A stretch of DNA of 64,000 bases from the NCBI RefSeq assembly GCF_028641065.1, contig NC_073391.1, positions 45,508,001 to 45,572,000 on the forward strand. The letters run 5' to 3'. Source of the stretch: Leucoraja erinacea. Its lineage: Eukaryota. Shown here piece by piece: positions 25,600-63,100 of this stretch. The stretch's first letter is position 1. Each line of letters opens with the position of its first letter. The notes under the pieces were generated by a model that saw only the letters and a list, made by a program, of their open reading frames with translations, did no database searches and was not told the origin of the DNA. Position numbers and translations under genes: made by a program.

Positions 25600-25860
25600 C
25601 GATCTGATGGTCGGTAACGGGCTATAGGGGGGCGAGCGGGGGGGAAGGGCCGGGACTGTCCGGAGGGATTGTTTATCCCCGCGGCCCCAGAGCTGCCTCC
25701 TACCTGGGACCTTCCCTCACCGCGCTCACCGCGGGACACCACTTCCGGTCTCTCCACTTCCGACTTCTGCAGCTGAGATAGAGCCCATTCCGCGCCGCAA
25801 TGCATTCTGGTTACTTCTACACGCCATGGTGCTTGGCGTGAATAAGGTCGTTCATCACCC
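25600..25860 (-). promoter_or_regulatory. Orphan CpG promoter and exon 1, paralogous to the ZNF-9 promoter
   Basis: Reverse complement aligns with 37330-37570; two CACTTCCG ETS sites; TAACCAGAATGCATTGCG SBS; donor CAG|GTAGG at ~25704. Confidence 0.7.
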
Positions 25861-26013
25861 GGGATTAGAGTCATAGACTGATACAGTGCACAAACAGGCG
25901 ACATTAGTCACACCTGCCTGCGTTTGGTCCATATCCCTCCAAACCTGCCCTATCCATGTACATGTCTAACTGTTTCTTAAATGTTGGGATAGTCCCTGCC
26001 TCAACTACCTCCT

Positions 26014-26335
26014 AGAAACATAGAAAATTGGTGGAGGAAGCCATTCGAGCCAGCAGCGCCATTCATTGTGATCATGGCTGACCGTCCCCTGTTAATAACC
26101 CGTGCCTGTCTTCTCCCCATATCCCTTGACTCCACTAGCCCCTAGAGCTCTATCTAACTCTCTCTATATCCATCCAGTGATTTGGCCTCCACTGCCCTCT
26201 GTGGCAGGGAATTCCATAAATTCACAAATCTCTGAGTGAAAACGTTTTTTCTCACCTCAGTCTTAAATGACCTCCCCTTTATTCTAAGACTGTGGCCCCT
26301 GGTTCTGGTCTCACCCAACATAAGGGAACATTTTT
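26014..26335 (-). mobile_element. CR1 3' end inserted only in unit 1
   Basis: CCTCCT duplicated at 26008-26013 and 26336-26341; site empty in units 2 and 3. Confidence 0.8.
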
Positions 26336-27179
26336 CCTCCTCCGGCAGTATGTTCAATATACCCATCACCCTTTGCATGAAAAAACAGATTGTTTTCACA
26401 CCCTTCATGTGAAAAAAGTTGCTGCCTGTCCCTCTGAGTTAATCCAGCATTTTGTGCCTATCTTCGTTTAAACCAGCATCGGCAGTTCCTTCCTACACAT
26501 ACGATATGATAGAAGTTTACTTATCCCAGGGAAATCGTTCTGCCAACAGTCATAAAACACATGAAATACATATGGTCACATTACTTGCAACTGGTCAATG
26601 GAACAGATATCCAGTTTCAAGCAGGGTCCAAGGCCCCACAGCCAGGAGATAATCTGCCCATAGCTCACAGTTCACCCATTGTGACCCTTTTGCACATGGA
26701 ATGAATGGCCCTGCTTTCTGGTGTACGTTATGCAAATTATAGAGATATGAAGGCATTGGGTTTAAAGCAGAACTGATTTACTTCACACCAATCCAAAATA
26801 TTACTCCAGCAGTTACAGGGGTAACTGGCATTACAGAAACAAAGAGGCCCGACCCGCTGAGTTACTCCAACACTATTGTCACATATCTATGATATGTGTA
26901 TTAATATATGAGCAGTAACCATAGAGTCCAACACCAGTAATCACAGGATTTAACAACTAAGGCAAATTATTTTTATGTACACATACTTGGCTAATAAAAT
27001 TTACTCTAAACAAACCAGAAACGTATTTAAACTTCCTCCCCCAGTGAGAACGAGCTGGTGTATCAATTCTTCAGATATTCGAGTAAATCCCAGCCCACAC
27101 ACTAAACAGGTGAATGCTCTCTCCCCAGCATGAATTCTCTGGGGGGGGGGGTCACCTGGTTAGATTTACTGGCGAAACC

Positions 27180-28223
27180 CTACCCATGGTTGGGAGAGGC
27201 AAATGGTTTCTCCACAGCGTGAATTCGCTGGTGGGTCTTCAGGTGAGAAGATTGAGTGAATTTCCTCCCACACTCAGAGCAGGTGAACGGCCTCTCCCCG
27301 GTGTGAACTCGCTGGTGGGTCTTCAGGGTGCTTGTTTGAGCGAATCCTTTCCCACAATCGGGACAAACAAATGGTTTCTCCGCAGTGTGAACTCGCTGGT
27401 GGGTTACCAGGTGGCCAGATTGGGTGAATCCCATCCCGCACTCGGAGCAGGTGAACGGCCTCTCGCCCGTGTGATTTCTCTCATGCACCACTAATGCAGA
27501 GGATAGAGCGAATCCCTGCCCACACTCGGAGCAGGTGAACGGCCTCTCCCCCGTGTGGTTTCTCTCATGCACCACTAACGCAAAGGATTGAGTGAAACCC
27601 TGCCCACACTCGGAGCAGATGAACGGCCTCTCCCGGGTGTGAATTCGTTGGTGGGTCTTCAGGCTGCTTGCTACAGTGAATCCCTTCCCACAATCGGGAC
27701 AGTCAAATGGTTTCTCCGCAATGTGAACTCGCTGGTGGGACACCAGTTGGGAAGATTGGACAAATCCCTTCCCGCAATCGGAGCAGGTGAACGGCCTCTC
27801 TCCCGTGTGAATTCTCTGGTGTCTCAGTAAGTCAGATGAACAAGTAAATCCCTTCCCACATTCAGAGCAGTTGAACGGCCTCTCTCCAGTGTGAATTCGC
27901 TGGTGTATCTGTAATTTAGATGATTCAACGAATCTCATTCCACACTTACAGCAGGCAAACGGCTTCTCCCCTGTGTGAATTCTCTGGTGTAGCAGCAACT
28001 TAGATGATCCAATGAATCCCTTCCCACATTCAGAGCAAGTGAACGGCCTCTCCCCTGTGTGAATACGCTGGTGCCTCTTCAGTTGGTACGATTGAGTGAA
28101 TCCCTTCCCACAATCGGGACAGGTAAACGGTTTCTCCACAGTGTGAACTGGCTGTCGGGTCAACAGGGGGGAAGATTGGTTTAATCCCTGCCCACACTCA
28201 GAGCTGGCGAGTAATTTCTCCAT
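27180..28223 (-). CDS. C2H2 zinc-finger protein ZNF-6, 11 fingers
   Basis: ATG (MEKLL) at 28223; intact finger array; ends FASPNHG*. Confidence 0.88.
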   Translation of the reverse strand: MEKLLASSECGQGLNQSSPLLTRQPVHTVEKPFTCPDCGKGFTQSYQLKRHQRIHTGERPFTCSECGKGFIGSSKLLLHQRIHTGEKPFACCKCGMRFVESSKLQIHQRIHTGERPFNCSECGKGFTCSSDLLRHQRIHTGERPFTCSDCGKGFVQSSQLVSHQRVHIAEKPFDCPDCGKGFTVASSLKTHQRIHTRERPFICSECGQGFTQSFALVVHERNHTGERPFTCSECGQGFALSSALVVHERNHTGERPFTCSECGMGFTQSGHLVTHQRVHTAEKPFVCPDCGKGFAQTSTLKTHQRVHTGERPFTCSECGRKFTQSSHLKTHQRIHAVEKPFASPNHG

Positions 28224-28479
28224 ACTGTGACCTGTCTGGCGTCCGGGCGGATCAGCTGACGCAGTGAATCCTCCCACACGTTCAGGCGGCGGTGAAATAA
28301 ACGAGTTTGAGATTCCTGAACATCAATCCTATCAATCCAATCCAAACGTTGCCTATCTCCTTCGCTCCATAGATGCTGCTGCACCCGCTGAGTTTCTCCA
28401 GCATTGTTGTGTACCTTCGATTTTCCAGCATCTGTAGTTCCTTCTTAAACACAAGATCTGTCCGGGTCGGGACCCTTCC

Positions 28480-28780
28480 TCTCACCGGTCAATCCGTGCA
28501 TTCGATGCGCTCACGCCGCCGGGGACCGCACCGATTCTCCCCGCAGCCGGGGGCCGCTCCTCAGGCCGGGGCCTCGGTGCTGACTGATCCCGCGCCCGGA
28601 TCCCCGCTCCTACCCGCCGCCGCCGATCCTCCGGAGTCTTTTGTCCACGGACCGCATGCGCGCCTTGGCTGCACCACTTCCGGGGCTCTCCACACCTGCG
28701 CGCTTGGTATCGCCTGCAACATAGGGTGACTTCTGGGGCGCGGAGGTTTCTGGGTAAAAAGGGCGCCATGGACATAATCT
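28480..28780 (-). promoter_or_regulatory. CpG promoter and exon 1 of ZNF-6
   Basis: CGCATGCGCG; composite ATGG-N9-TACCCAGAA at 28769; donor CCG|GTGAG at ~28486. Confidence 0.7.
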
Positions 28781-30923
28781 GAAATCACCGGCCCAACGTT
28801 CCCCAATGGACAACAGCCATTTTTTCCTTGTCTGTGAAGAGTCTGAGGTCAATGTAACACAGCGACCTCTCTCGTCGATTACTTGTAAAAATCATTACAC
28901 ATACAAGTGCCGAATGGTGGAACTATCAGACTCACGAACCAATGAAGTTTGAGTTTGAATAAGTTCATTAGCCAAGTAATCACATACATGGAGTTTGCTG
29001 TGGTGCTCCGCCCGCTAGTGACAACATGACACACAGTAACAGTTAGGAATGACACATAAAACATTAATAATAAAACATGTGAACCATTACACATACAAGT
29101 GCTGGAAATTCCAACTATGTTACTCATGAACCAATGGCAGTTTTCACCCTCCCTCACCAGAGTAAACGGAGGAGGAAAAAATACAAGGACATTCCAGAGA
29201 AGTCATCAGAAGAGAAGGACTGGCAGTGAGTGATCAGATGGGCCGAGTGGCCTACATTGCATGCGGAGACAAGGGAACAACAGAACTCATTTATTTTTAG
29301 ACCGTGGGCCGAGATGCTTTTTTGTTTCATTTTGTGACCCAAATCACGTATCTACCTGTATTTATAACATATTATGTAAAAATATTATAGAAATCATACC
29401 CGAAACCCGTCAGAGAGCGGTGGAGGCTGGTTCTCTGGATGCTTTCAAGAGAGAGTTAGATAAAAACTCTTAGGGATAGCGGAGTTCAGGGATATGGGGA
29501 AAAGGCAGGAACGGGTTCCTGATTGTGGATGATCAGCCATGATCACATTGAATGGCGGTGTTGGCTCAAAGGGCCTAATGGCTACTCCTGCACCTATTGT
29601 TTATAAAGAACAAAATCTGCACATATTTTTAAACTTTTAAATATGAGAAAAACCTCAAATGTCCCTAGTAGAGCTCTACGGTTTTAGTTCCTGCCTAGCT
29701 AGCATGAAACATATAATGTTTGGCACTCACCGCGGGACACGACTTGCGGTCTCTCCACTTGCGACTTCTGCAGCTGAGATAGTTCTACACGCCATGGTGC
29801 TTGGCGTGCCTAAGGTCGTTCATCACCCGGGATTAGAGTCATAGGGTGATACAGTGTACAAAAAGACTACATAAGTCACACCTGCCTGCGTTTGGTCCAT
29901 ATCCCACCAAACCTGTCCTATCAATGTACATGTCTAACTGTTTCTTAAATGTTGGGATAGTCCCTGCCTCAACTACCTCCTCTGGCAGTATGTTCCATAT
30001 ACCCATCAGCCTTTGTGTGAAAAAAACGAATGTTTTCACACCCTTTGTGTGAAAAAACATACGCTGCCTGTCCCGCTGAGTTAATCCAGCATTTTGTGTC
30101 TATCTTCGTTTAAACCAGCATCGGCAGTTCCTTCCTACACATACGATATGATAGAATCCCAGGGAAATCGTTCTGCCAACAGTCATAAAACACATGAAAT
30201 ACGTACGCTCACGTTACTTGCAACTGGTCAATGGAACAGATATCCAGTTTCAAGCAGGGTCCAAGGCCCCACACCCAGGGGATGATATGTCCTTAGCTCA
30301 CAGTTCACCCATTGTGACCCTTTTGCACATGGAGTGGATGGCCCTGCTTTCGGGTGTACGTTGTGCAAATTATAGAGATATGAAGGCACTGGGTTTAAAG
30401 CAGAACTGATTTATTTTCCAAAATATTAAAGGGCAACTGGCATTTCAGAAACAAAGAGGTCCGACCCGCTGAGTTAACCCAGCACTATTGTCACATATCT
30501 ATAATATGTGTAGAAATATATCAGCAGTAACCATAGAGTCCAACACTAGCAGTCACTTGTGGACACAACAGGATTTAAGAACAAAGGCAAATTATTTTTA
30601 TGTACACATACATACATTCTCCGAGATCTTCAGTTTCCTCCCTCACTCCAAAGACGTACAAGTTTGTAGGTTAATCGGCTTGTGTAAAAATAATTGTCCC
30701 TAGTGGGTGTAGGATAGTGTTAATATGCGGGAATCGTTGGTCGGCGCGCGTACTCTAAACAAACCAGAAACTTATTTAAACTTTCTCCCTAGTGTGAACG
30801 AGCTGGTGTATCAATTGTTCAGATATTCGAGTAAATCCCAGCCCACACACTAAACAGGTGAATGCTCTCTCCCCAGCATGAATTCTCTGGGGGGATCACC
30901 CGGTTAGACTTACTTGTGAAACC

Positions 30924-32135
30924 CTACGCATGGTTGGGAGAGGCAAATGGTTTCTCCACAACGTGAATTCGCTGGTGGGTCTTCAGGCGAGAAGATTGAG
31001 TGAATTTCTTCCCACACTCAGAGCAGGTGAACGGCCGCTCTCCAGAGTGAATTCTCTGGTGTATCAGTAACGCAGATGAGTGAGAGAATCCCTTCCCACA
31101 CTCAGAGCAGGTGATCACCCTCTTCCCAGGGTGAACGTTGAGATGTTTTTGCAAATTCGATAATTGAGTGAATCCCTTCCCACACTCAGAGCAGGTGAAC
31201 GGCCTCTCCCCGGTGTGAACTCGCTTGTGGGTCTTCAGGCCGCTTGCTTGAGCGAATCCCTTCCCACAATCGGGACAAACAAATGGTTTCTCCCCAGTGT
31301 GAACTCGCTGGTGGGATACCAGTTGGGAAGATTGGCCGAATCCCTTTCCGCACTCGGAGCAGGTGAACGGCCTCTCCCCCGTGTGATTTCTCTCATGCAC
31401 CACTAACGCAAAGGATTGAGCGAATCCCTGCCCACACTCGGAGCAGATGAACGGCCTCTCGCCCGTGTGATTTCTCTCATGCACCACTAACGCAATGGAT
31501 TGAGTGAATCCCTGCCCACACTCGGGGCAGATGAACGGCCTCTCCCCAGTGTGAATTCGTTGGTGGGTCTTCAGGTTGCTTGCGACAATGAATCCCTTCC
31601 CACAATCGGGACAGTCAAATGGTTTCACCGCAGTGTGAACTCGCTGGTGGGGCACCAGTTGGGAAGATTCGACAAATCCCTTCCCGCAATCGGAGCAGGT
31701 GAACGGCCTCTCTCCCGTGTGGATTCTCTGGTGTCTCAGTAAGTTAGATGAACAAGTAAATCCCTTCCCACATTCAGAGCAGGTGAACGGCCTCTCTCCA
31801 GTGTGAATTCGCTGGTGTATCTGTAACTTAAATGATTCAACAAATCTCATTCCACACTTACAGCAGACAAACGGCTTCTCCCCTGTGTGAATTCTCTGGT
31901 GTAGCAGCAACTTAGATGATCCAATGAATCCCTTCCCACATTCAGAGCAAGTGAACGGCCTCTCCCCTGTGTGAATATACTGGTGATTCTTCAGTCGGCA
32001 CGATTGAGTGAATCCCTTCCCACAATCGGGACAGGTAAACGGTTTATCCACAGTGGGGACTGGCTGTCGGGTCAACAGATGGGAAGATTGGTTTAATCCC
32101 TGCCCACACTCAGAGCTGGCCAGTAATTTCTCCAT
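30924..32135 (-). CDS. C2H2 zinc-finger protein ZNF-7, 13 fingers (probable ZNF-6/ZNF-8 chimera)
   Basis: ATG (MEKLL) at 32135; acceptor CTTTTTACAG| at 32257 places the ORF-track start at 32276 in the intron. Confidence 0.9.
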   Translation of the reverse strand: MEKLLASSECGQGLNQSSHLLTRQPVPTVDKPFTCPDCGKGFTQSCRLKNHQYIHTGERPFTCSECGKGFIGSSKLLLHQRIHTGEKPFVCCKCGMRFVESFKLQIHQRIHTGERPFTCSECGKGFTCSSNLLRHQRIHTGERPFTCSDCGKGFVESSQLVPHQRVHTAVKPFDCPDCGKGFIVASNLKTHQRIHTGERPFICPECGQGFTQSIALVVHERNHTGERPFICSECGQGFAQSFALVVHERNHTGERPFTCSECGKGFGQSSQLVSHQRVHTGEKPFVCPDCGKGFAQASGLKTHKRVHTGERPFTCSECGKGFTQLSNLQKHLNVHPGKRVITCSECGKGFSHSSALLIHQRIHSGERPFTCSECGKKFTQSSRLKTHQRIHVVEKPFASPNHA

Positions 32136-32304
32136 GCTGTGACCTGTCTGGCGTCCGGGCGGATCAGCTGACGCAGTGAATCCTCCCAGACGTTCAGGCG
32201 CAGATGAAATAAACGAGTTTGAGATTCCTGAACATCGATCCTCTGCTTCTTCTACCCTGTAAAAAGAGTTGACCATAAATTAACAGGTAAAGATCTGTCC
32301 GGGT

Positions 32305-32486
32305 GCAGCAACATCTCAGGAGCGAAAAAGATAGGCAACGTTTCGGGCCGAAACCCTTCTTCAGACGTTTCGGCCCGAAACGTTGCCTATCTACTTCGCT
32401 CCATAGATGCTGCTGCACCCGCTGAGTTTCTCCAGCATTGTTGTGTACCTTCGATTTTCTAGCATCTACAGTTCCTTCTTAAACAC
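32305..32486 (+). mobile_element. Penelope-derived insert in ZNF-7 intron 1, 15-bp TSD
   Basis: AAGATCTGTCCGGGT at 32290-32304 and 32487-32501; empty site in unit 3 at ~36710. Confidence 0.88.
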
Positions 32487-32514
32487 AAGATCTGTCCGGG
32501 TCGGGACCCTTTCT

Positions 32515-32805
32515 CTCACCGGTCAATCCGTGCATTCGATGCGCTCACGCCGCCGGGGACCGCACCGATTCTCCCCGCAGCCGGGGGCCGCTCCTCAGGC
32601 CGGGGCCTCGGTGCTGACTGATCCCGCGCCCGGATCCCCGCTCCTACCCGCCGCCGATCCTCCGGAGTCTTTTGTCCACGGACCGCATGCGCGCCTTGGC
32701 AGCAACACTTCCTGGGCTCTCCGCGCCTGCGCGCTTGGTATCGGATGTAACATAGGGCAAGTTCTGGGGCGCGGCGGTTTCTGGGTAAAATGGGCGCCAT
32801 GGACA
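32515..32805 (-). promoter_or_regulatory. CpG promoter and exon 1 of ZNF-7
   Basis: Paralogous to 28480-28780; donor at 32520/32519; composite element at 32800. Confidence 0.7.
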
Positions 32806-32810
32806 TGATC

Positions 32811-33504
32811 TCAAGTCAAGTCATGTTTATTCGTCACATACACATACGAGATGTGCAGTGAAATGAAAAGTGGCAATGCTCGCGGACTTTGTGCAAAAAG
32901 ACAAACAAACAAACAACCAACAAACAGAATCACATATTCTTTTTCATGTTAAATATTGTGGGCGGAAGGAAAAAGGTTCAGTAAAGTTAGTCCCTGATGA
33001 GATAGGAGTTTACAGTCCGAATGGCCTCTGGGAAGAAACTCCTTCTCAATCTCTCCGTTCTCACAGCATGGCAACGGAGGCATTTGCCTGACCGTAGCAG
33101 CTGGAACAGTCCGCTGTAGGGGTGGAAGGGGTCTCCCGTGATTTTATTGGCTCTGGAGTTGCATCTCCAGATGTATAGTTCCTGCAGGGGGGCGAGTGAA
33201 GTTTCCATAGTGCGTTCGGCCGAACGCACTACTGTCTGACAGCCTTCTTGTCCTCGGCAGAGCAATTCCCAAACCAGATGGTAATATTTCCGGACAAGAT
33301 GCTTTCCACAGCCGCAGAGTAGAAGCATTGGAGGATCCTCGGAGACAATCTGAATTTCCTCAATTGCCTGAGGTGGTAAAGGCGCTGCCTTGCCTTACTC
33401 ACGAGTGCTGCGGCTTGTGATGTCCATGTCATATCCTCAGAGTTGTGGACTCCCAGATATTAAAAACAGCTCACCCTATCCACAGTATCCCCATTTATCC
33501 TCGA
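32811..33504 (-). mobile_element. Rex1/Babar-like LINE 3' fragment, specific to unit 2
   Basis: KARQRLYHLRQLRKF..FYSAAVESILSGNITIWFGNC; (TCAAG)n tail on +; unit 1 reads uninterrupted GGACATAATCTGAAATCACC. Confidence 0.75.
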
Positions 33505-34756
33505 TGAAATCACCGGCTCAACGTTCCCCAATGGACAACAGACATTTTTTCCTTGTATGTGAAGAGTCTGAAGTCAATGTAATACAGCGACCTCTCTTGT
33601 CGATTACTTGTTAAAATCATTACACTTACAAGTGCAGAATGGTGCAACTATCAGACTCACAAGCCAATTAAGTTTTAGTTTGAATAAGTTTATTGGCCAA
33701 GTAATCACATACAAGGTGTTTGCTGTGGTGCTCCGCTCGCTAGTGACAACATGACACACAGTGACAGTTAGGAAAGACAGATAAAACATTAATAATAAAA
33801 TATTATCGATTAAACATGTGAGCCATTACACAGACAAGTGCCGGAAATTCCAACTATGTTACTCATGAACCAATGGCAGTTTTCACCCTCCCTCACCAGA
33901 GTAAACAGAGGAGGAAAAAATACAAGAACATTCCAGAGAAGTCATCAGAAGAGAAAGACTGGCAGTGAGTGACCAGATTGGCCGAGTGGCCTACATTGCA
34001 CGCGGAGACAAGGGAACAACAGAACTCATTTATTTTTAGACCGTGGGCCGAGGTGCTTTTTTGTTTCATTTTGTGACCCAAATCACGTATCTACCTGTAT
34101 TTATAACATATTATGTAAAAATAATATAGAAATCATACCTGAAACTCGTCAGAGGGCGGTGGAAGCTGGTTCTCTGGATGCTTTCAAGAGAGAGTTATAT
34201 AAAACTCTTATGGATAGCCGAGAAGGGATATGGGGAGAAGGCAGGAACGGGTTCCTGATTGTGGATGATCAGTCATGATCACATTGAATGGCGGTGTTGG
34301 CTCAAAGGGCCGAATGGTTACTCCTGCACCTATTGTCTATAAAGAACAAAACCTGAACATATTTTAAAACTTTTAAATATGAGAAAAACCTCAAATGTTC
34401 CTAGTACAGCTCTATGATCTTTGCTCCTGCCTAGCTAGTATGAAACATATAATCTTTGGCGCTCACTTTGGACAGTGAGTCGGTCTCTCCACTTCCGACT
34501 TCTGCAGCTGAGATAGAGCGTATTCCGTGCCGCAATGCATTCTGGTTACTTCTACACGCCATGGTGCTTGGCGTGCATAAAGTCGTTCATCACCTGGGAT
34601 TAGAGTCATAGAGTGATACAGTGTACAAACAGACTACATTAGTCACACCTGCCTGCGTTTGGTCCATATCCCTCCAAACCTGTCCTATCTATGTTTCTTA
34701 AATGTTGGGATAGTCCCTGCCTCAACTACATCCTCCGGCAATATGTTCAATATACC

Positions 34757-34972
34757 TGTAGATGGTTATGCATGAAACCATATATGTAGTTACCTCATTA
34801 TCATATTGACCCTCCCACACTTTGTAGTATAACTGTAGTATCTGCATGCTCCCTCCCCTGTAGGTTCCAGTACGTGTGCAGACCAGTTGTGGTTAGTGCT
34901 GGAACGTGTGTGAGTAGTATCTTAATAAAGACTTAGTTAAAGGACTAAGGACGACGTCTAGTTTCCTTTACA
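34757..34972 (+). mobile_element. Solo LTR (216 bp) of the Gypsy family at 48607
   Basis: TG..CA ends; ATACC TSD at 34752-34756 and 34973-34977; near-identical to the 48607 and 51943 LTRs. Confidence 0.95.
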
Positions 34973-35647
34973 ATACCTATCACCCTTTGTGTGAAAAAAA
35001 CAAATGTTTTCACACCCTTTGTGTGAAAAAAAGATGCTGCCTGTCCCGCTTAGTTAATCCAGCATTTTGTGTCTATCTTCGTTTAAACCAGCATCGGCAG
35101 TTCCTTCCTACACATACGATATGATAGAAGTTTATTTATCCCAGGGAAATCTTTCTGCCAACAGTCATAAAACACATGAAATATGTACGGTCACGTTACT
35201 TGCAACTGGTCAATGGAACAGATATGCAGTTTCAAGCAGGGTCCAAGGCCCCACACCCAAGGGCTGATCTGCCCATAGCTCACAGTTCACCCATTGTGAC
35301 CCTTTTGCACATGGTGTAAATGGCCCTGTTTTCTGGTGTACGTTGTGCAAATTATAGAGATATGAAGGCATTGGGTTTAAAGCAGAACTGATTTATTTTA
35401 CACCAATCCAAAATATTAAACTCCAGCAGTTACAAGGGCAACTGGCATTACAGAAACAAAGAGGCCCGACCCGCTTAGTTACTCCAGCACTATTGTCACA
35501 TATCCACGATATGTGTAGTAATATATCAGCAGTAACCATAGTCCAACACCAGCAGTCACTTGTGGACGCAACAGGATTTAACAACAAAGGCAAATTATTT
35601 TTATATACACATGCTTGGCTAATAAGATCTATTCAATTCAATTAATG

Positions 35648-35905
35648 ACGGTGGCGCAGCGGTAGGGTTGCTGCCTTACAGCGAATGCATCGCCGGTGAC
35701 CCAGGTTCTATTCTGACTACGGGTGCTGTCTGTACGGAGTTTGTACGTTTTCCCCCGTGATCTGCGTGGGTTTTCCCCGAGATCTTCGGTTTCCTCCCTC
35801 ACTCCAAAGACATACAGGTTTGTAGGTTCATTGGCTTGTGTAAAAAAATTGTCCCTAGTGGGTGTAGGATAGTGTTAATATGCGGGAATCGTTGGTCGGT
35901 GCACG
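35648..35905 (+). mobile_element. V-SINE/HE1-like SINE (truncated paralogous copy at ~30615-30750)
   Basis: A-box-like GGTGGCGCAGCGGTAG head and conserved central domain. Confidence 0.8.
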
Positions 35906-36003
35906 TACTCTAAACAAACCAGAAACATATTTAAACTTTCCCACTATGCCCTCTCCCCAGCATGAATTCTCTGGGGGGGGGGGGGGGGGTCACCCGGTTA
36001 GGC

Positions 36004-36555
36004 TTACAGGTGAAACTCTACCCATGGTTGGGAGGCAAATGGTTTCACCACAGCGTGAATTCGCTCGTGGGCCTTCATGTTAGAAGATTGAGTGAATTTC
36101 TTCCCACACTCAGAGCAGGTGAACGGCCGCTCTCCAGAGTGAATTCTCTGGTGTCTCAGTAACGCAGATGAGTGAGAGAATGCCTTCCCACACTCAAAGC
36201 AGGTGAACGGCCTCTCCCCCGTGTGAATTATCTGGTGTCTCAGTAACTGAGATGAACGAGTAAATCCCTTCCCACATTCAGAGCAGGTGAATGGCCTCTC
36301 TCCAGTGTGAATTCGCTGGTGTATCTGTAACTCAGATGATTCAATGAATCTCTTCCCACACTCAGAGCAAGTGAACGGCCTCTCCCCTGTGTGAATATGC
36401 TGATGCCTCTTCAGTTGGTATGATCGAGTGAATCCCATCGCACAATCGGGACAGGTAAACGGTTTCTCCACAGTGTGAACTTGCTGTCGGGTCAACATGT
36501 GGGAAGATTGGTTTAATCCCTGCCCACACTCAGAGCTGGCCAGTAATTTCTCCAT
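36004..36555 (-). CDS. C2H2 zinc-finger protein ZNF-8, 5 fingers
   Basis: ATG at 36555; predicted 66-bp intron 36742-36677; a 2-bp deletion changes the C-terminus to SQPWVEFHL. Confidence 0.85.
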   Translation of the reverse strand: MEKLLASSECGQGLNQSSHMLTRQQVHTVEKPFTCPDCAMGFTRSYQLKRHQHIHTGERPFTCSECGKRFIESSELQIHQRIHTGERPFTCSECGKGFTRSSQLLRHQIIHTGERPFTCFECGKAFSHSSALLRHQRIHSGERPFTCSECGKKFTQSSNMKAHERIHAVVKPFASQPWVEFHL

Positions 36556-36739
36556 GCTGTGACCTGTCTGGCGTCCGGGCGGATCAGCTGACGCAGTGAA
36601 TCCTCCCACACGTTCAGGCGCCGGTGAAATAAACGAGTTGGAGATTCCTGAACATCAATCCTCTGCTTCTTCTACCCTGTAAAAAGAGTTGACCATAAAT
36701 TAACAGGTAAAGATCTGTCCGGGTCGGGACCCTTCCTCT

Positions 36740-37600
36740 CACCGGTCAATCCGTGCATTCGATGCGCTCCCGCCGCCGGGGACCGCACCGATTCTCCCCG
36801 CAGCCGGGGGCCGCTCCTCAGGCCGGGGCCTCGGTGCTGACTGATCCCGCGCCCGGATTCCCGCTCCTACCCGCCGCCGGTCCTCCGGAGTCGTTTGCCC
36901 ACTGACCGCATGCGCGCCTTGGGCTCTCCGCGCCTGCGCGCTTGGTATCGGCTGCAACATAGGGTGATTTCTGGGGCGCGGAGATTTCTGGGTAAAAAGG
37001 GCGCCATGGACATGATCTGAAATCACCGGCTCAACGTTCCTCGATAAAGTGCAAATAAACAGATAATGGGCTATTAATGGTCAGTGTTTTGTCCGAGCTG
37101 AGTTTAATAGCATGATGGCTGTGGGGAAGTGGCTATTCCTGAACCTGGTCGTTGCAGTCTTCAGGCAGTTCAAAAGTTCCACACTAACTGAACATCAAAT
37201 TAGAAAATGTTTAAAGTGTTTCGGCCCGAAACGTTTCCTATTTCCTTCGCTCCATAGATGCTGCTGCACCCGCTGAGTTTCTCCAGCTTTTTTGTTTACC
37301 ATCAAATTAGAAAAATCCCATGTGATCAACGACGTTATTCACGCCAAGCATCATGGCGTCCATTAGTGACCAGAATGCGCTGCGGCGTGGAACACGGTCT
37401 ATCTCTGCTACAGGAGCCGGAAGGCCAGGGGCAGAGAAAGGAAGTGCTGTCCCGGGCATGCGCGTTGGGGTGGGAGCGCCGCGGATGAAGGTCTGTCCTC
37501 AGCCCGAGCTCGTTTCCGGCCCCAGGTAGGAGCGCAGCGCGGGGCCGCGGGGATTACCGGCTCCCCGGGCCAGGCGTGGACGGGCAGGCCTCCGGGCTGG
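36740..37600. promoter_or_regulatory. Head-to-head CpG promoters of ZNF-8 (-) and ZNF-9 (+)
   Basis: Composite elements at 37007(-) and 37353(+); GCATGCGCG; plus-strand donor CAG|GTAGG at ~37525. Confidence 0.7.
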
Positions 37601-37654
37601 GAGAGTCCCGACCCTTCCACCCGCTCGCCCCCACCGAGCTCCGGAGATTCTCTC

Positions 37655-47465: not shown

Positions 47466-48606
47466 TGTAGCTCAATGGATCAGGCAGCATCGGGTTGGGA
47501 CCCTTTTTTAAATAGATGGGGGGAGGGGTGGGGGGGAGGGGGGTGTGGAGAGAACGTTTGCGTGCAAACTTGCTTTTTCACATTGAATGGCGGTGCTGGC
47601 TCGAAGGGCCGAATGGCCCCCTCCTGCACCTATTTTTCTATCTTGGATGTAGAAACACGGAACTGCAGATGCTGGGTTTACAGAAAAAAAAGACACAGAG
47701 TGTTGGAATAACTCAACGGGTCCGGCAGCATTCGGAAAGGTCCCGACCCGAAACGTTGCCCATCCACGTTCTCCGGACACGCTGAGTTACTTCGGCACTT
47801 TGTTTTTTTTAAATTTGTGAACCAGCATCTGCAGTTCCTTGTTACTGCATTGTTTTATAGTTGCTTGTTTTAAGTAGCTCTTTGCCCGGCCACGGGATCT
47901 CCTAAAATAATCCACAGACAGTGACTCAAAACGGCGCATATTCCTTCGCTCCATAGATGCTGCCTCCTCCGCTGAGTTTCTCCAGCATTTGTGTCTACCG
48001 CAGACAGTGACTGTTAAGCGTCGGAGAAGGTACAGCCGGGAATAGCACGGTGACAAACACGAGATGTGGGCGGTGTGGCAGCTGGGACGTGGATTACAAA
48101 ACAACAGGGATCACCAAAATAAAATAGGGAGAGTTTAAGAAATAGCGAAGTATGACAACAAGATACAAGGGAGGAGGGTGGGGTTGGTGAAACCGCACTT
48201 GGAATACTGCCCACTGTTTATGCCCCTTTATTTTTAGAAAAGATACTGGGACTGAAGGAAGTCTATGTTAATGTTTTTAATGTAATGCATCTGACACAAA
48301 AGATCGCTTGACTACACAAATTATTCCCTGACGTCTGAAGAAGGGTCTCGACCCGAAACGTCTCCTACCCACGATCTGCAGCCTCACAGCACGAGAGATC
48401 ATTCTTCAGACACACCGACGGTAGACACAAAAATGCTGGAGAAATTCCGCGGATCAGGCAACATCTCTCGAGAAAAGGAATAGGTGACGTTCTTCAGAAC
48501 CCTGAGGAATGGTCGACCGGAAACGTCATCTATGGTGCCTGACACAATGAGTTACTCCAGCATTTTGTGTCTATAGTGGGTGTAAACCAGCATCTGAAAG
48601 TCCTCC

Positions 48607-51600
48607 TGTAGATGGTTATGCATGAAACCATATATGTAGTTACCTCATTATCATATTGACCCTCCCACACTTTGTAGTATAACTGTAGTATCTGCATGTT
48701 CCCTCCCTGTTAGGTTCCAGTACGTGTGCAGACCAGTTGTGGTTAGTGCTGGAACGTGTGTGAGTAGTATCTGAATAAAGACTTAGTTAAAGGACTAAGG
48801 ACGACGTCTAGTTTCCTTTACGTGGTGTCAGAACCTGTAAATCTGCGCCTCTGTACATCGGGTTTTATTTTGTTTATTGGGTGAGTGTGTATAAGGATGG
48901 CTTCGTCTTGTTGCAAGCCTTCCCCGTTAGTTTTTGATGCCGACATCGCGGAGCGATGGGATACGTTTGTAATCGACTACAATCGCTATGTCAACATTGC
49001 ACACCGCAATGATCCTCCTGCTCTCAGGGCATCTTTGCTGCTGAATCTCGCTGGACCAGATGCCATGAGGAGGGCTAATTCGTTTGAATACCGTCCAGCG
49101 GTCCCGGATGTGGATGGCCAGGTTGTTGAGCCAGCAGAATCTCCGGACGACCCAGCTTGTCTATTGAGGAAGTTCACAGAGATCTGCGACCTTCCTTCCA
49201 ATCGCATTTTGGAGCGAACTCGTTTGTTTTCACGCAAGCAACAGCCTGGGGAGCCGGTGGAATGTTTCATTGCCGACCTCCGCCACCTGTCGCAGCGCTG
49301 TCGTTTTGGTGAGTTGCGTGACGAGCTCACGCGGGATATATTGGTTAATGGCATGCTTGACCAGAAGCTGCGGTCTGATTTATTAAGGAGGCCTGACCTC
49401 ACGTTAAACGAAGCTATGCATGCCTGCCGCTTAGCTGAGGTCGTGTAGTTACTCCGTTCAGTGGGGAGAGAGGTTCTGGGAACCGTGCCGTCGGTGTGGC
49501 TGCTCTGTCTGTGCCGCGGCGGGCACCTAACAATTTTAAACCACAGCCTCGCCCAGCTCCTGCCCCCCGCCCTCAGAGTGCCAGAAAGTGCCCCAATTGT
49601 GGGTATGGACATTTGCCTCGATCTCCTTGTCCCGCTATCGGAAAAGCCTGCAACTATTGCAGAATGCAAAATCATTTTTCGTCGGTCTGCCGTTCCCGTG
49701 GGAACGCTGCTCAGCCACCTCGCCAGGTGTTCAGCAATCTCCAGAGGATTGAAAGTGTCCTTGATCCACAGCTCGACGAGGAGTCAGCCCCCGAGTCCGA
49801 CTCCAGCATCTCTATGGGGGATGCCAGTGTTTACGCTCTGCTGCACAACCAGTCTCGACTCCCCGATCCATCGGTGCTAGTCACTGTCAATAACAAGACC
49901 TTCACTGCGAAGTTGGATACGGGTGCGAAGGTCAGCGTAATTTCAACAACGCTCTTCCACCAGATAAGGTCTAATGAACAACTGACTGCGGATCGCTCTG
50001 TGCTGCGAGCATACGGTGGGGAGGAACTGACACCTGTGGGGAGGGTAACTTTCCACTGCAAGCTACAGAAGACATCTCGTGACTTATCGTTTTTTGTCTT
50101 GGATTGCGATTGTGTGCCTCTACTGAGTAATCAGGCTTGCCAAGATCTGGGCCTGGTTGCTTTCGACAGTACAGTCCATGAGGTACGGGTGGTGTTGGAC
50201 CCTGTCTCCGAATACCCTGACCTTTTTGATGATCAGCTGGGGAAGCTGCCGCTCGTTTATAAAATTGCCACAGACTCCTCCATTACTCCAGTGTGCCGTC
50301 CGTCACATAGGGTTTCTTTCGCGATGAAAGACAAAGTCAAAGCTATGCTGGACAAAATGGTGAACTTGGGGGTACTGGAAGCTATCAGCGAGCCCACTAG
50401 CTGGGTGTCCACGATGGTCGCCACACTAAAAAAAGGCAAGAACGAAATCCGGGTCTGTACCAACCCGAAGGACTTGAACACTGCCATTAAAAGGCCCCAC
50501 TACCCTATGAGGACTGTCGAGGACGTTGCTGCCCAGGTTGGTCAAGCCACCGTATTTTCTGTTCTGGATGCCTATTATTCTGCTGCTCACTCAGGGCATC
50601 CGGGTGCTGACGCTACCGTTGCCCAAGCTCAAGGGCAGTACTACTGGCCTGCCATGGCCAAGTACATTAAGGCTCGAGTTGCAGCGTGTGCTGAGTGCAA
50701 CTCCATGGCCCCTCACCATCAACGCCAGCCCCTGCTGCAGCAGCCGGCCCCTGACATGCCCTGGTCTTCACTGGCTGCAGATATATTTGAATGGCGTGGG
50801 AAGAACTACCTGGTGCTAGTTGACTCATATTCGTCTTGGTTTGATGTGGACCTTCTTCCCACCATCACCTCGGAGATGGTCATCGGGAAGCTGCGACGTC
50901 ACTTCGCTACCTTTGGCTCCCCGGTCAAGCTTCAGACTGACAACGGCCGGCAGTTTACCAGCGCCGAATTTGCTGCCTTCGCTGCTAAGTGGAACTTTGC
51001 TCACTATACTAGCAGCCCTGAGTTCCCTCAAAGTAACGGACTGGCTGAACGTGCTGTGCGCAGCGCAAAGACATTGTTGGAGCAGTCTCGTTTGTCTAAC
51101 TGCGATTTCTATCAGGGACTGTTAAATTTGCGTAATGTTTCTAGAGATGGGGGTTTGGGTTCTCCTGCTCAACGGCTCATGTCTCGTGTCCTCCGCCCAC
51201 CTATGCCAATCTCTCAGCAATCGCTGATCCCGGTGGTTCGCCCCCCTGATGCGGTCCACCGCCGTATTTCTCAACGCCATGAGATCCAGCGTCGGTCCCA
51301 TGACCAGTCTTGCCGCCCCTTGCCTTCCCTTTCCACGGGTCAGGTTGTCCGTATGCAGACACCCACCGGGGTTTCCAAGCTTGCTACTGTAGTAGGAATT
51401 GCTGACTCGCCCCGTTCCTATTTGGTGGATTACGAGGGCACTGTGTACCGTCGCAGTCGCCAACATCTGTTAGCTGTCCGTGAGCCTGCTCCCCCGATTC
51501 CTTTCCCGGAGACATCCTCTCCGTGGCCCGTCTCTCCTCCTCGGGTTGTGCCGCCTATCCCTGCTGTAGTTCGTGACCCTACTCTGCCTACTTCTGTGCC

Positions 51601-52158
51601 TACTGGTTTCTGTTCTCCTGCCGGTGCATCTCCTCCCCGTTTTTCACCTGTCAGTTCTATTCCTTCTCCTTCTCCCTCTCCTTCTCGTTCGTCTCTCAGT
51701 CCACCGGTTTCTAGTCACCCACCTGTTTTGGTGCCTGATCCGCCCCTCCGTTTTTCTCTGCCCCTGCCTTCATCTTTGGGGGAGGGGAGTGAGGGTGCTG
51801 TACGGACCCGCTCTGGTAGAGTTGTTCGGGCCCCAGATCGGTATGGCGATTATGCTTAGTTTTAGGATGTTTGGTAACTGATATTGTCATTATGTGCAGG
51901 TCTGTATAATCACCCTGCTGCTGTTTATCTTACGGGAACGGATGTAGATGGTTATGCATGAAACCATATATGTAGTTACCTCATTATCATATTGACCCTC
52001 CCACACTTTGTAGTATAACTGTAGTATCTGCATGTTCCCTCCCTGTTAGGTTCCAGTACGTGTGTAGACCAGTTGTGGTTAGTGCTGGAACGTGTGTGAG
52101 TAGTATCTGAATAAAGACTTAGTTAAAGGACTAAGGACGACGTCTAGTTTCCTTTACA
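48607..52158 (+). mobile_element. Gypsy/Ty3 LTR retrotransposon (Mag-like), non-autonomous; LTRs 48607-48822 and 51943-52158
   Basis: 216-bp LTRs differing at 2 positions; CCTCC TSD at 48602-48606 and 52159-52163; PBS TGGTGTCAGAA at 48823 (tRNA-Leu-like); purine-rich tract before the 3' LTR. Confidence 0.95.
48897..51859 (+). pseudogene. gag-pol with a 2-nt frameshift at ~49443 and in-frame loss of most RT and RNase H; protease and integrase motifs intact
   Basis: Two CCHC knuckles; LDTGA; RT N-terminus ending VFSVLDA fused to the integrase HHCC region; DDE core (AADIF, TDNG, SNGLAERAV). Confidence 0.9.
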
Positions 52159-57295: not shown

Positions 57296-57819
57296 TCTGA
57301 AAAGCATTCACCTCTAAATTACCCCGAATGCGAAAGTGGCATAACATGGAACTAGAGGGTAGACAAAAGAGCTGGGGAAACTCAGCGGGTGAGTATCTAT
57401 GGGGCGAAGGAAATAGGCAACGTCTGAAGAAGGGTTTCAGCTCGAAACGTTGCCTATTTCCTTCGCTCCATAGATGCTGCCGCACCCGCTGAGTTTCTCC
57501 AGCAATTTTATCTACCTCCTAAGCAAATATACTATCTTTGGTCCGAAGAAGGGTGCCGACTCGAAACGACATCTGAAGAAGGGTCTCGACCCGAAACGTC
57601 ACCCATCCCTTCTCTCCAGAGATGTGCCTGTCCCGCTGAGTTACTCCAGCTTTTTGTGTCTATCCATGTTCTTCAGAAATGCTGCCTGATCCGCTCATTT
57701 ACTCCAGCACCTTGTGTCTTTTTTATTGGAAAACGGCACCTGTAGTGTCTGCTGTTCTACAGTCGTTCCATTTGGGAGTATTTTTGAGGGACGTGAGACG
57801 TAAAGCCAACAGCTAAATT

Positions 57820-58170
57820 CCTATCAATGGAGGACACCATTGACCAGAAGCCTCTGCGGCTAAGTAAGTGCTCTATCAACACTAAAGGAAGAGTGCAGCG
57901 TATGTGCACAGCGGAAGGGACGTGACCTGGGCAGCGACGGTGGTGTGGAGGTAGGAGCTGGGGACTGGGGTGTGGGTTCAATTGGTGCGGGCGGGCGGGC
58001 GGGCGAGCTGGAGGCGCAGCCATCGTCCATGGGAGGAGATCTGCAGAAACACAGCGGGCAGCCATGCTGGCTCAGACCTGACCATTATCCCCCGTGCGAG
58101 TTCCTTGCGTTTTCCACAGGCCCGGTTCAAGAAACGCGTCGCTCGCTGGGACGCGGGGAGTCATAGTCAC
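57820..58170 (+). promoter_or_regulatory. Putative ZNF-type promoter and exon 1 (second copy ~60210-60560); coding exon not in window
   Basis: ATGG-N10-TGACCAGAAGCCTCTGCG at 57827; CGGAAG; donor GAG|GTAGG at ~57951. Confidence 0.55.
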
Positions 58171-59624
58171 ACAGCGTGGAAACAGGCAAAGTCAGCCCAT
58201 TTGTCCCCGCCGCTCATATCCTTCCAAATCCTTCTGTCTCACGACTTCGGTTTAAATCTCTAGTCTTTGTTTTATCCATACGCCTATCAAAAGAAAACCC
58301 TCCCCCTTGTCCATCCTCCGGGCTGTGTCATGCCTCATCTCCCCTACACTCTTCCCCCCCCCCGCACCCCCCCCCCCCCCCCCCCCCCCCGGTCTGCAGA
58401 AGGGACCCGAACCGAAACTTGACATGCATATTCTCCATCTCTAGATGATGCCTGGCCCGATGAGTTATTGCAGCATTTTGAGTCCCTTTAAACATTTCCT
58501 ACCCATGTGCCACTCCGAATGTCTTTTAAATGTTGTAAAAGGTACTTGCTTCAAGTTCAAGTGAGTTTATTGTCATGTGTCCCAGATAGGACAATGAAAT
58601 TCTTGCTTTGCTTCAGCATACAGAACATAGTAGGCATTGACTACAAAACACATGAATAAACAAACTGTTAAAGTGCAAATAACAGATAATGGGTTATTAA
58701 TGTTCAGAGTTTTGTCTGAACATTAATAACCCATTATCTGTTATTCAGAGCCAGGTTTAATAGCCTGATGGCTGTGGGGAAGTAGCTATTCCTGTCAAGT
58801 CAAGTCAAGTTTATTTGTCACATACACTTACGAGATGTGCAGTGAAATGAAAGTGGCATCACCTGAACCTTGTCATTGCAGTCCTGTACCTCCTACCTGA
58901 AGGTAGCAGGGAGGTTAGTGTGTGGCCAGGATGGTGTGGGTCATTGATGATACTGCCAGCCTTTTTGAGGCAGCGACTTCGATAAATCCCCTCGATGGAA
59001 GGAAGGTCAGAGCCGGTGATGGACTGGGCAGTGGACTACTACTTCCTCTGCACGAAAGGACACAAAGTCTCAGCAGGTCAGGCAACATCTCTGGAGAACA
59101 TTTCAGGTCGAGGCCCTTCTAAGGACTGATCGTCCGGAGAGGGGGGCGGGGCTGAGAAAGGATCTTGACCCAAAGTAATTTATCCACATTCTTCGGAGAT
59201 GCTGCCTGACGTGCTGAATTATGCCAGCACTTTGTGTCCATTTGAATATTAACCCGCTGAGTTACTCCAGCTTTTTGTGCCTGACAAGCATCTGTAGTTC
59301 TTTCTTTCCACCTCTTCTGCCAGATTGTTCCAGATACCCACCACTGTCTGAGTGAAAATATTGCCCCTCAGGATCCTATTAAATCTTTTCCCTCTCACCT
59401 TAATCCTATGTCCTGTGGTTTTGATGTCTGTCCTCTGGGTAAATTCACCTTATCTATCCCCCTCATACACCTCTATAAGATCACCCCTCATCCTCCTGCG
59501 CTGAAAGAAATAAAGTTCAACACAGCCTAACCTCCATTGCTCAGGCCCTCAAGTCCAGGCAACAGCCTCGTAAATCTTCAATACACTCTTGTACAGGAAG
59601 GAACTGCATAAATACACTCTTTCC

Positions 59625-60157
59625 ATAGAAACATAGAAAATAGGTGCAGGAATAGGACATTCGGCCCTTCGAGCCTGCACCGCCATTCAATATGATCATG
59701 GCTGTTCATCCAACTCAGTATCCTGTACCTGCCTTCTCTCCATACCCCCTGATCCCATTAGCCACAAGGGCCACATCTAACTCCCTCTTAAATATAGCCA
59801 ATGAACTGACCTCAACTACCTTCTGTGACAGAGAATTCCAGAGATTCACCACTCTCTGTGTGAAAAATGTTTTCCTCATCTCAGTCCTAAAAGATTTCCC
59901 CCTTATCCTTAAACTGTGACCCCTTGTTCTGGACTTGCCCAACATCGAGAACAATCTTCCTGCATCCAGCCTGTCCAATCCCTTAAGAACTTTGTAAGTT
60001 TCTATAAGATCCCCCCTCAATCTTCTAAATTCTAGCGAGTACAAACCGAGTCTATCCAATCTTTCTTCATATGAAAATCCTGACATCCCAGGAATCAGTC
60101 TGGTGAACCTTCTCTGCACTCCCTCTATGGCAAGAATGTCTTTCCTCAGATTAGGAT
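59625..60157 (-). mobile_element. CR1 LINE 3' end (copy 1)
   Basis: ORF 59715-60119 is the CR1 ORF2 C-terminus. Confidence 0.9.
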
Positions 60158-62009: not shown

Positions 62010-63100
62010 CATAGAAACATAGAAAATAGGTGCAGGAATAGGACATTCGGCCCTTCGAGCCTGCACCGCCATTCAATATGATCATGGCTGTTCATCCAAC
62101 TCAGTATCCTGTACCTGCCTTCTCTCCATACCCCCTGATCCCATTAGCCACAAGGGCCACATCTAACTCCCTCTTAAATATAGCCAATGAACTGACCTCA
62201 ACTACCTTCTGTGACAGAGAATTCCAGAGATTCACCACTCTCTGTGTGAAAAATGTTTTCCTCATCTCAGTCCTAAAAGATTTCCCCCTTATCCTTAAAC
62301 TGTGACCCCTTGTTCTGGACTTGCCCAACATCGAGAACAATCTTCCTGCATCCAGCCTGTCCAATCCCTTAAGAACTTTGTAAGTTTCTATAAGATCCCC
62401 CCTGAATCTTCTAAATTCTAGCGAGTACAAACCGAGTCTATCCAATCTTTCTTCATATGAAAATCCTGACATCCCAGGAATCAGTCTGGTGAACCTTCTC
62501 TGCACTCCCTCTATGGCAAGAATGTCTTTCCTCAGATTAGGATCACCAATGCATCCACGATTTTCAGAGCCACCTCCTGGGTTGCAGACCATCAGGCCCT
62601 GGGGATTTATCAGCCTTCAGTCCCATCAGTCTACCCAACATAATTTCCTGCCTAATGTGGATTTCCTTCAGTTCCTCCATCACCCCAGATCCTCTGGCCA
62701 CTAGTATACTAGGGAGATTGTTTGTGTCCTCATTGGTGAAGACAGATCCAAAGTACCTGTTCAACTCATCTGCCATTTCCTTGTTCCCCGTAATAAATTC
62801 ACCTTTTTTCAGTCTTCAGTTGTTCAACTTTGTTCTTAACTAATTTTTTCCCCTTCACGTACCTAAAGAAGCTTTTAGTATCCTCCTTTATATTCTTGGC
62901 TGGTTTACCATCGTACCTCATCTTTTTTCCCCGTATTTTATTTTTAGTTCTCCCTTCTCTCTCTTAAATTGTAGATTAAAACATCATATTATGGTCACTA
63001 CCTACTAATGGCTCCTTTACCTCGAGTTCCCTTATCAAATCCGGTTCATTACACAACACTAAATCCAGAATTGCCTTCTCCCTGGTAGGCTCCAGTACAC
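62010..63100 (-). mobile_element. CR1 LINE (copy 2) with additional internal ORF2 fragments
   Basis: ORFs 62101-62592 and 62564-62776 (LNRYFGSVFT..KSPGPDG). Confidence 0.9.

Follow-up and report, generated by a model that had tools for sequence, protein, structure and literature searches.

The window analyzed here is a 64,000-nucleotide stretch of the Leucoraja erinacea genome (NCBI RefSeq assembly GCF_028641065.1, contig NC_073391.1, positions 45,508,001 to 45,572,000). Self-comparison and three-way alignment delineate unit 1 (25722..28802; 3' flank, ZNF-6, intron and first exon/promoter region) and unit 2 (29723..32818; the unit of ZNF-7), followed by unit 3 (34481..37040; the unit of ZNF-8), where the spacer homology stops at 37040; all three are on the minus strand, as are the reading frames of ZNF-6 (27180..28223; 347 aa, 11 C2H2 fingers), ZNF-7 (30924..32135; 403 aa, 13 C2H2 fingers), and ZNF-8 (36004..36555; 183 aa, five fingers). 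Poly-zinc-finger proteins of the C2H2 type have several C-x2-C-x12-H-x3-H fingers and TGE(K/R)P-type linkers in one frame; ZNF-6, ZNF-7, and ZNF-8 all have this Kruppel-type organization, and their matches to the Pfam families zf-C2H2 and zf-H2C2_2 are far over the cut-off. The Pfam search covered the three ATG-to-stop frames, leaving room for an upstream coding exon; in these frames, no N-terminal effector domain (KRAB, SCAN, or BTB) is found among the best 25 Pfam families per protein, out of totals of 31, 33, and 28 (31 for ZNF-7).

The units are arranged head-to-tail with two spacer copies, confirming the tandem trio of the original prediction. Spacer 1 (28782..29722) is the upstream flank of this zinc-finger subfamily and also adjoins the paralogs O1, O2, and O3; it differs from spacer 2 (33497..34480) at 59 of 942 columns, and the spacer-to-unit junction is one junction that occurs twice in the array. 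The divergence among the three units is about equal (4–10%). In unit 2 only, a LINE-like fragment (32812..33496) is inserted where spacer 2 starts; in unit 3 only, a solo LTR (34757..34972) is flanked by ATACC and shares 97% identity with two further LTRs, at 48605-48821 and 51943-52158. Such unit-specific inserts were taken out of the three-way alignments. About 40 related promoter/first-exon copies of the subfamily are located within 0.5 Mb.

The original prediction was that ZNF-7 is a chimera, with the left half of unit 2 derived from unit 3 and the right half from unit 1, and it relied on insertion markers, whose family labels (CR1, SINE, and Penelope) are presumptive. On the right, the Penelope-like insert in intron 1 of unit 2 (32305..32486, between 15-base direct repeats at 32290-32304 and 32487-32501) is indeed common to units 1 and 2, and its site is empty in unit 3 and in all three aligned paralogs (O1, O2, and O3); judged from these alignments, it is the sole true shared-derived mark among the markers named, and it ties the right part of unit 2 to unit 1. 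In unit 1, 13 filler bases and half of the insert (28331..28452) replace 135 bases that include the probable splice acceptor of the coding exon (splice sites in the array were assigned from sequence alone).

On the left, the three markers are real, but they are ancestral states that changed only in unit 1. The CR1-like insert (26014..26335, flanked by CCTCCT) is present in unit 1 only, and its site is empty in units 2 and 3; 13 bases containing CACTTGTGGAC are lost in unit 1 only. The SINE is whole in unit 3 (35648..35921, plus strand), is represented by its 3' half in unit 2 (30617..30750, plus strand), and appears to have lost its body by deletion in unit 1, in which a remnant of the site (27002..27016, plus strand) equals the bases at the SINE 3' end in units 2 and 3, O1, and O2; this 3' end also adjoins the same 3' UTR in O2 and O4. 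Because paralog O1, 440 kb away (G000:C15:45983610), has both the SINE at the same site and CACTTGTGGAC, their absence from unit 1 is a loss; being ancestral, the three left-half markers are uninformative on the parentage of unit 2. Thus, no shared-derived markers point to a different parent on each side of unit 2: the right has the intron insert, and the left markers are ancestral. As a general caution, an insert found in two copies can be taken as a sign of common descent only after its empty site has been seen in an outgroup.

The substitutions are a second source of evidence. We left out of the counts the columns within 2 of a gap (within 1 in one polarizing count), three-state columns, the first two ragged flank columns (in the switch test), and the fingers not common to all three genes. 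Over 795 columns of the left half, units 2 and 3 differ by 5.9%, units 2 and 1 by 7.3%, and units 1 and 3 by 6.8%, so the claimed match of the left half to unit 3 is weak in substitutions. A single switch near 31.1–31.3 kb had been predicted; the best single switch in unit 2 is modest and is located at 30583..30602, outside the gene and about 330 bases past the ZNF-7 stop codon, with the left leaning to unit 3 (32:18) and the right to unit 1 (15:35). With unit 2 as the child, MaxChi found this same switch under three filters (permutation p 0.011, 0.028 after merging adjacent sites, and 0.0046 after dropping CpG sites), one of nine tests and made on unpolarized sites; with unit 1 or unit 3 as the child, p was 0.08–0.84. 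For the unit 2 switch, p = 0.051 on non-coding sites alone and 0.021 with silent sites added; a break fixed at 31.2 kb gave p 0.06. The original prediction gave the interval 30,602-31,001 to unit 3, but of its 17 informative sites, 13 place unit 2 with unit 1 (p 0.004 under the left-flank odds, and 0.049 when non-coding sites are taken alone); the likelihood ratio for a switch to the left of this interval is about 50 (about 6 on its 12 non-coding sites). Unit 2 may thus have formed by recombination between two copies that were almost identical, its coding region deriving entirely from the ZNF-6 side.

A lesser but substantial possibility is that ZNF-7 is ancestral and its neighbors lost fingers, but that the switch is not real, that is, unit 2 is the sister of unit 1, or the copies are near-simultaneous, with uneven rates, repeated mutation, and short conversion tracts accounting for the pattern. 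Faster change in the unit 1 flank or in ZNF-8 could mimic the switch; amino-acid-changing codons number 11 on the ZNF-8 branch vs one on the ZNF-6 branch. When the left flank is polarized with outgroups (39 of 79 variable columns are without one), three shared-derived sites favor units 2+3, two favor 1+2, and two favor 1+3. The polarized sites are scattered (1+2 at 29828, 30500, and 32062; 2+3 at 29809, 29866, 30583, and 31978; 1+3 at 29983 and 29996), and the trees of units 1–3 are star-like and unresolved; neither backs the unit 2 switch. Site 30989, which with two outgroups had counted as shared-derived for 1+2, was dropped as ambiguous once O4 was added. AU tests rejected no pairing in either segment (p 0.16–0.46) and did not even establish that the three units form a clade. 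As a share of their age, the time between the two duplications is estimated at −5 to 38% on the left and −1 to 41% on the right, so both ranges include zero. Against these observations, all three filters recovered one and the same breakpoint, and did so only when unit 2 was treated as the child; a junction found twice also demands an unequal exchange somewhere in the unit.

Searches with ZNF-7 protein yielded no ortholog usable for polarizing: the whole protein retrieved generic zinc-finger proteins only, at ≤58% identity among the best 120 of 5497; residues 1–48 gave one match of two candidates (58%, in the electric ray Narcine bancroftii); and residues 320–362 gave 13 matches, all unrelated. 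None of the exact ZNF-6, ZNF-7, and ZNF-8 proteins is in the protein collection searched (0/3).

The finger arrays show which parts of ZNF-7 have counterparts in the putative parents. As claimed, ZNF-7 fingers 1–10 parallel those of ZNF-6 (47 differences in 840 bases). The claim that the last two fingers match ZNF-8 is correct for the helix of finger 12 (1/39 bases different) and for finger 13 in its linker/beta part (the opening 45 bases of this finger are the same in ZNF-7 as in ZNF-8); it fails for the PGKRVI linker of finger 12, which is absent from ZNF-8, and for the finger 13 helix, which is 1/39 bases off the last helix of ZNF-6 and 5/39 off that of ZNF-8. The earlier tally also sums to 12 fingers (10 + 2), not 13, leaving finger 11 unaccounted for; the helix of this finger is at least 16/39 bases off every finger in ZNF-6 and ZNF-8 (16 in all). 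The segment with the finger 11 helix and the PGKRVI linker (31101..31170, minus strand) is thus in neither putative parent. The HLN-PGKR motif occurs in five places genome-wide: in ZNF-7 and in three distant paralogs, namely, twice in O1, in O2, and in a copy on contig C7 (which shares with O2 a terminal SGER-KKF finger). The segment is also found in organism D, a contig of which spans 31085-31192 with two differences in 108 bases. The one-step origin of a new 13-finger specificity is not supported.

The shorter arrays look like derivatives of the ZNF-7 order in which in-frame deletions fused parts of different fingers. The ZNF-6 last finger (finger 11; 27219..27302, minus strand) equals ZNF-7 finger 11 in its first 37 bases and has a helix 1/39 off that of ZNF-7 finger 13; the two source parts join within a 22-base stretch common to both, as expected if a 168-base in-frame deletion produced this finger. 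ZNF-8 fingers correspond to ZNF-7 finger 1, a 2/3 hybrid, finger 4, a 5/12 hybrid, and finger 13, and the C-terminal tail is frameshifted; the two hybrids would have arisen in the same way. Finger 10 of ZNF-7 duplicates finger 6 in full; its helix, with 7/39 differences, is older than the split from O2 (3/39), which fits an ancestor in which finger 11 came directly after an intact finger 10.

An unlikely history, nearer to the original prediction, is that an out-of-register crossover near 31,177, within finger 11, fused a ZNF-6-like front with the tail of a ZNF-8 ancestor that was then longer; ZNF-8 would have lost this tail region later. The front would consist of fingers 1–10 and the start of the ZNF-6 last finger, and the tail of the HLNVH-PGKR, SALL, and SGER fingers. 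Across 223 kb of the related cluster, ZNF-7 is the only gene with an intact finger 10 ahead of the HLNVH finger 11 (O1, O2, and the C7 copy have a fused 10/11), and the terminal finger of O4 (TGER...KKF-TQSSH) is like that of ZNF-6, so the latter could be an old terminal type. The close match of ZNF-7 to ZNF-8 in fingers 12 and 13, the p value for a break fixed at 31.2 kb, and the AU test, which does not reject the 2+3 pairing for the segment with the 3' UTR (p 0.40), also agree with it. However, under this crossover unit 2 should resemble unit 3 in its 3' UTR and last helix, where 13 of the 17 sites agree with unit 1; the three left markers cited for it are ancestral; and it calls for a ZNF-8 ancestor that has since vanished and for additional substitutions in finger 11 (ACT vs GCT/GCA in the fused finger). 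We regard as equally doubtful the broader proposal that ZNF-7 was built in one step by such a crossover from two already different paralogs, gaining a finger and a 13-finger array absent from both parents, and that it then spread, was kept in at least two lineages, and was tuned by positive selection at DNA-contact residues. Such a finger 11 crossover, if it took place, would be a case, in a cartilaginous fish, of a new DNA-binding array and with it a chimeric transcription factor arising in one step and at a datable point.

It is very improbable that the trio results from misassembly, with haplotypes or repeats placed one after another. Nothing speaks for it directly; one run X2 contig is a unit-2/unit-1 mosaic, which shows that short-read assembly of the region is hard. 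The units are 4–10% apart, each with its own insertions, and contigs of two organisms bridge array-specific features: in organism B, which has marks of all three unit types (presence only, in short contigs), the spacer junction (29569-29776), deletions in unit 2 (30303-30512), and the one in unit 3 (35864-36077), and in organism D, the unit-1 13-base deletion (26826-27031). This contig evidence rests on at least 32 pieces, and the mapping of four DNA runs onto the whole array was swamped by repeats.

On balance, we favor a history in which a single 13-finger C2H2 gene was duplicated in tandem twice, in close succession; ZNF-6 and ZNF-8 would then have lost fingers through internal in-frame deletions, and ZNF-7, which most likely kept the ancestral order, is probably not a newly spliced hybrid. 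First, the unit would have been duplicated, making the spacer-to-flank junction, and the Penelope-like element would then have inserted into the left copy. A second step, unequal crossover between the still nearly identical copies, probably took place on the 3' side of the gene, near 30.6 kb; all of the ZNF-7 coding sequence would then descend from the ZNF-6 side. The A-(B/A)-B geometry of the original prediction is that expected for two units becoming three with one junction; its placement of the crossover within the fingers is not retained. Later slippage or recombination between finger repeats would have removed two fingers from ZNF-6 (11 to 13) and one and seven from ZNF-8, and binding specificity would then have diverged, mostly by substitutions at base-contacting residues.

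Comparison of fingers 1–10 of ZNF-6 and ZNF-7 suggests that any new specificity arose mainly from such substitutions: 15 of 30 amino-acid changes are at the four of 28 positions that contact bases (binomial p 4e-6), and pN is 0.19 at the contact positions vs 0.03 elsewhere, with pS 0.064 overall. This excess suggests that the genes have had a function in the past. An initial search for sequencing runs listed no RNA run. In RNA run X24 (about 1% read), 27 reads were placed, none at 99% identity and six with the ZNF-8-type base at 31063; in run X22 (about 6% read), 93 were placed, two at ≥95%. ZNF-6, ZNF-7, and ZNF-8 are likely sequence-specific DNA-binding factors of a fast-turnover cluster; transposon targeting would be a guess drawn from other animals.

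The history of the trio is ordinary zinc-finger cluster turnover. Chimeras that arise in tandem arrays by unequal crossover, for example, Lepore haemoglobin and the red-green opsin hybrids, have a crossover in the coding region and clearly diverged parents. The trio shares their A-(B/A)-B geometry; in contrast, its best switch falls outside the gene, and its parents probably differed by about 1%. A literature search with partial coverage found no report of such zinc-finger clusters in skates or rays, and the text of the zebrafish FiNZ-ZNF study does not mention cartilaginous fish ('cartilaginous', 'chondrichthy') (PMC10547256). As described there, FiNZ-ZNFs are clustered non-tetrapod ZNFs with positive selection at base-contacting residues; the skate trio is similar in all three respects, although FiNZ is reported to be unique to cyprinids. 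In lineage-specific poly-zinc-finger expansions, young paralogs vary in finger number by whole-finger deletion or duplication, with equal finger counts in only one group among 24 expansions and with short gene conversions (Emerson and Thomas, 2009; PMC2604467); finger number likewise varies in the skate trio, but those expansions are mostly mammalian, many with KRAB, SCAN, or BTB domains, none of which was found here. In mouse KRAB-ZFP clusters, paralogs arise from unequal crossing over or conversion, with finger gain and loss, drift of contact residues, and seeding of new sites (PMC5363842); the skate trio shares this type of turnover, with no KRAB domain found in its frames. A cartilaginous fish thus has a young zinc-finger subfamily that appears to evolve like the mammalian KRAB and zebrafish FiNZ clusters, by finger loss, fusion, and selection at contact residues.

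The array reads D1 C1 P1 S1 D2 C2 P2 S2 D3 C3 P3, where D is a flank, C the coding exon, P the intron with the first-exon/promoter region and S the spacer that follows; the three units all lie on the minus strand (unit 1, ZNF-6, 25722-28802; unit 2, ZNF-7, 29723-32818; unit 3, ZNF-8, 34481-37040). Pairwise differences between units are 5.9-7.3% in flank D (795 columns), 5.6% in fingers 1-10, 4-5% in region P and 6-10% at the 3' end, and spacers 1 and 2 differ by 6.3%; no two units are markedly closer to each other than to the third, so unit 2 is not the product of a recent recombination between parents that had diverged long before. At its left end the repeat unit breaks off within GC-rich, promoter-like sequence (25600-25870), which leaves partial promoter copies where units 2 and 3 begin; an inverted relative of this sequence lies just right of unit 3 (37310-37640).

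The insertion markers on which the original prediction drew are all real, but comparison with paralogs and empty sites leaves three of them uninformative on descent. The CR1-like insert has a 6-base flanking repeat in unit 1, units 2 and 3 show the empty site, and it is a gain in unit 1. A search of the same genome found a paralog ~440 kb away, O1, that carries CACTTGTGGAC and has the SINE of units 2 and 3 at the corresponding position; in two further paralogs, O2 and O4, the 3' end of the SINE adjoins the same 3' UTR, and in the flank left of the SINE O1 differs from the three units by 8.7-12.5%, the units among themselves by 7.9-8.7%. These observations indicate that the SINE predates the trio and was lost from unit 1. 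Because the spacer is the normal upstream flank of the subfamily, its absence after unit 3 is likewise a loss. The intron insert, with a 15-base direct repeat in unit 2 and half of the insert left in unit 1, has an empty site in unit 3, O1, O2 and a further paralog, O3; it is the sole shared-derived marker (units 1 and 2).

With unit 2 as the child, MaxChi on the 100 sites at which unit 2 agrees with one neighbour and not the other places a single break at 30,583-30,602 (32:18 to its left, 15:35 to its right; permutation p 0.011, falling to 0.0046 with CpG sites removed and rising to 0.028 once adjacent sites are merged, all uncorrected among nine tests); with unit 1 or 3 as the child, p is 0.08-0.84. 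With the break fixed, p is 0.003 at 30.7 kb and 0.06 at 31.2 kb; from 30,602 to 31,001, unit 2 sides with unit 1 at 13 of the 17 informative sites, and the likelihood ratio for a break left of this stretch is ~50 (~6 on the 12 non-coding sites). The original observation is partly confirmed, and its interpretation is partly supported, in the geometry of an unequal crossover and not in its location within the finger arrays or its consequence. Most likely, and with slightly better than even confidence, two nearly identical copies would have crossed over unequally at a point shortly 3' of the gene, and ZNF-7 would have retained the ancestral array. If the switch is real, the two duplications would be separated by ~1/5 of their age (the intervals include zero), and we infer that the parents were then ~1% apart. 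A distinctly less probable reading accepts this finger history but takes the switch not to be real; the switch is not confirmed by polarised left-flank sites (3:2:2 for 2+3, 1+2 and 1+3, with 39 of 79 columns lacking an outgroup), by non-coding sites alone (p 0.051) or by AU tests.

The three frames share a 27-residue start and encode 11 (ZNF-6), 13 (ZNF-7) and 5 (ZNF-8) C2H2 fingers. Finger by finger, ZNF-7 holds all that its neighbours have, plus a finger 11 helix and PGKRVI linker found in neither; in the last finger of ZNF-6 the first 37 bases correspond to finger 11 and the remainder to finger 13, with the join inside a common 22-base stretch, and ZNF-8 has the order 1, 2/3, 4, 5/12, 13. 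The HLN-PGKR motif occurs at five places in the genome (reversed control, 0), and a contig from organism D, one of the coded sequencing-run sources, matches 31085-31192 at 106 of 108 bases. The simplest history would be a 13-finger ancestor followed by three in-frame deletions. That ZNF-7 is a new chimeric array, as originally predicted, we consider improbable. Fingers 10 and 11 are fused in copies outside the trio and the terminal finger of O4 is ZNF-6-like, so an out-of-register crossover within finger 11 stays compatible with the finger order; the finger 10 helix is an old copy of the finger 6 helix (7/39 differences, against 3/39 between the orthologous fingers 6 of ZNF-6 and O2), and this age favours the fused 10/11 finger as the derived state.

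ZNF-7 finger 9 (KGFGQSSQLVSH; 31299-31382) resembles finger 5 and not finger 9 of ZNF-6, O1 and O2, which is of the MGF.QS..LV type; this suggests that a short tract was converted from finger 5, with a change of contact residues. In ZNF-6 a loss of 135 bases has taken away the inferred splice acceptor of the coding exon (28331-28343), yet its frame is intact, with the fewest changes among the three genes.

Part of the stretch is present in 20 of the 24 runs listed, from six coded organisms. In organism B, contigs run across the spacer junction and across deletions specific to units 2 and 3, and agree with the fingers of unit 1 at 152 of 153 bases; organism D, ~4-5% different in the flank pieces shown, has a contig that bridges a deletion specific to unit 1. 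These bridging contigs argue that the array is genuine and older than the splits among these organisms, and we give almost no weight to an artefact; on two-unit haplotypes they are mute. One 381-base contig from organism A (run X2), which resembles unit 2 in its left part (30209-30417) and unit 1 in its right part (26803-26954), may be a conversion tract, a recombinant haplotype or an assembler-made mosaic.

A dense cluster of related zinc fingers at G000:C15:45.80-46.01 Mb contains 424 fingers and 34 frames with at least three fingers in 223 kb, and the same promoter/first-exon sequence recurs ~40 times; at 260-470 kb from this cluster, the trio has the look of an outlying seed. O1 (G000:C15:45984649-45986712) has reached 22 fingers with a recent internal tandem duplication of 756 bases (9 fingers). 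The last fingers of the subfamily also occur as a short, isolated copy on another contig (G000:C7:16236400-16236900), followed by promoter-region-like sequence; this copy is probably a dispersed, rearranged pseudogene. Within the window, an LTR retrotransposon (48605-52158; LTRs 99.5% identical) has a long frame with Pfam protease and integrase matches and no Pfam reverse-transcriptase match; a solo LTR in unit 3 is 97% identical to its LTRs. A much younger 2.4-kb tandem duplication (57768-62548; 98.9% identical) could alternatively be an assembly duplication.

The DNA-contacting positions of C2H2 fingers are helix positions -1, 2, 3 and 6. Between ZNF-6 and ZNF-7, these four positions, of 28 per finger, take 15 of the 30 amino-acid changes in fingers 1-10 (p 4e-6), and 12 of 25 when finger 9 is left out; pN at contact positions is 0.19, against an overall pS of 0.064 (Fisher p 0.002), and pN elsewhere is 0.03. 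Binding specificity would have changed mainly through substitutions at these residues. Our literature search, partial in coverage, found no description of such a cluster in skates or rays. The trio is consistent with ordinary cluster turnover: its contact-residue pattern is the one described for mammalian and zebrafish ZNF clusters (PMC10547256), and its differences in finger number are like those reported among young ZNF paralogs (PMC2604467; PMC5363842).
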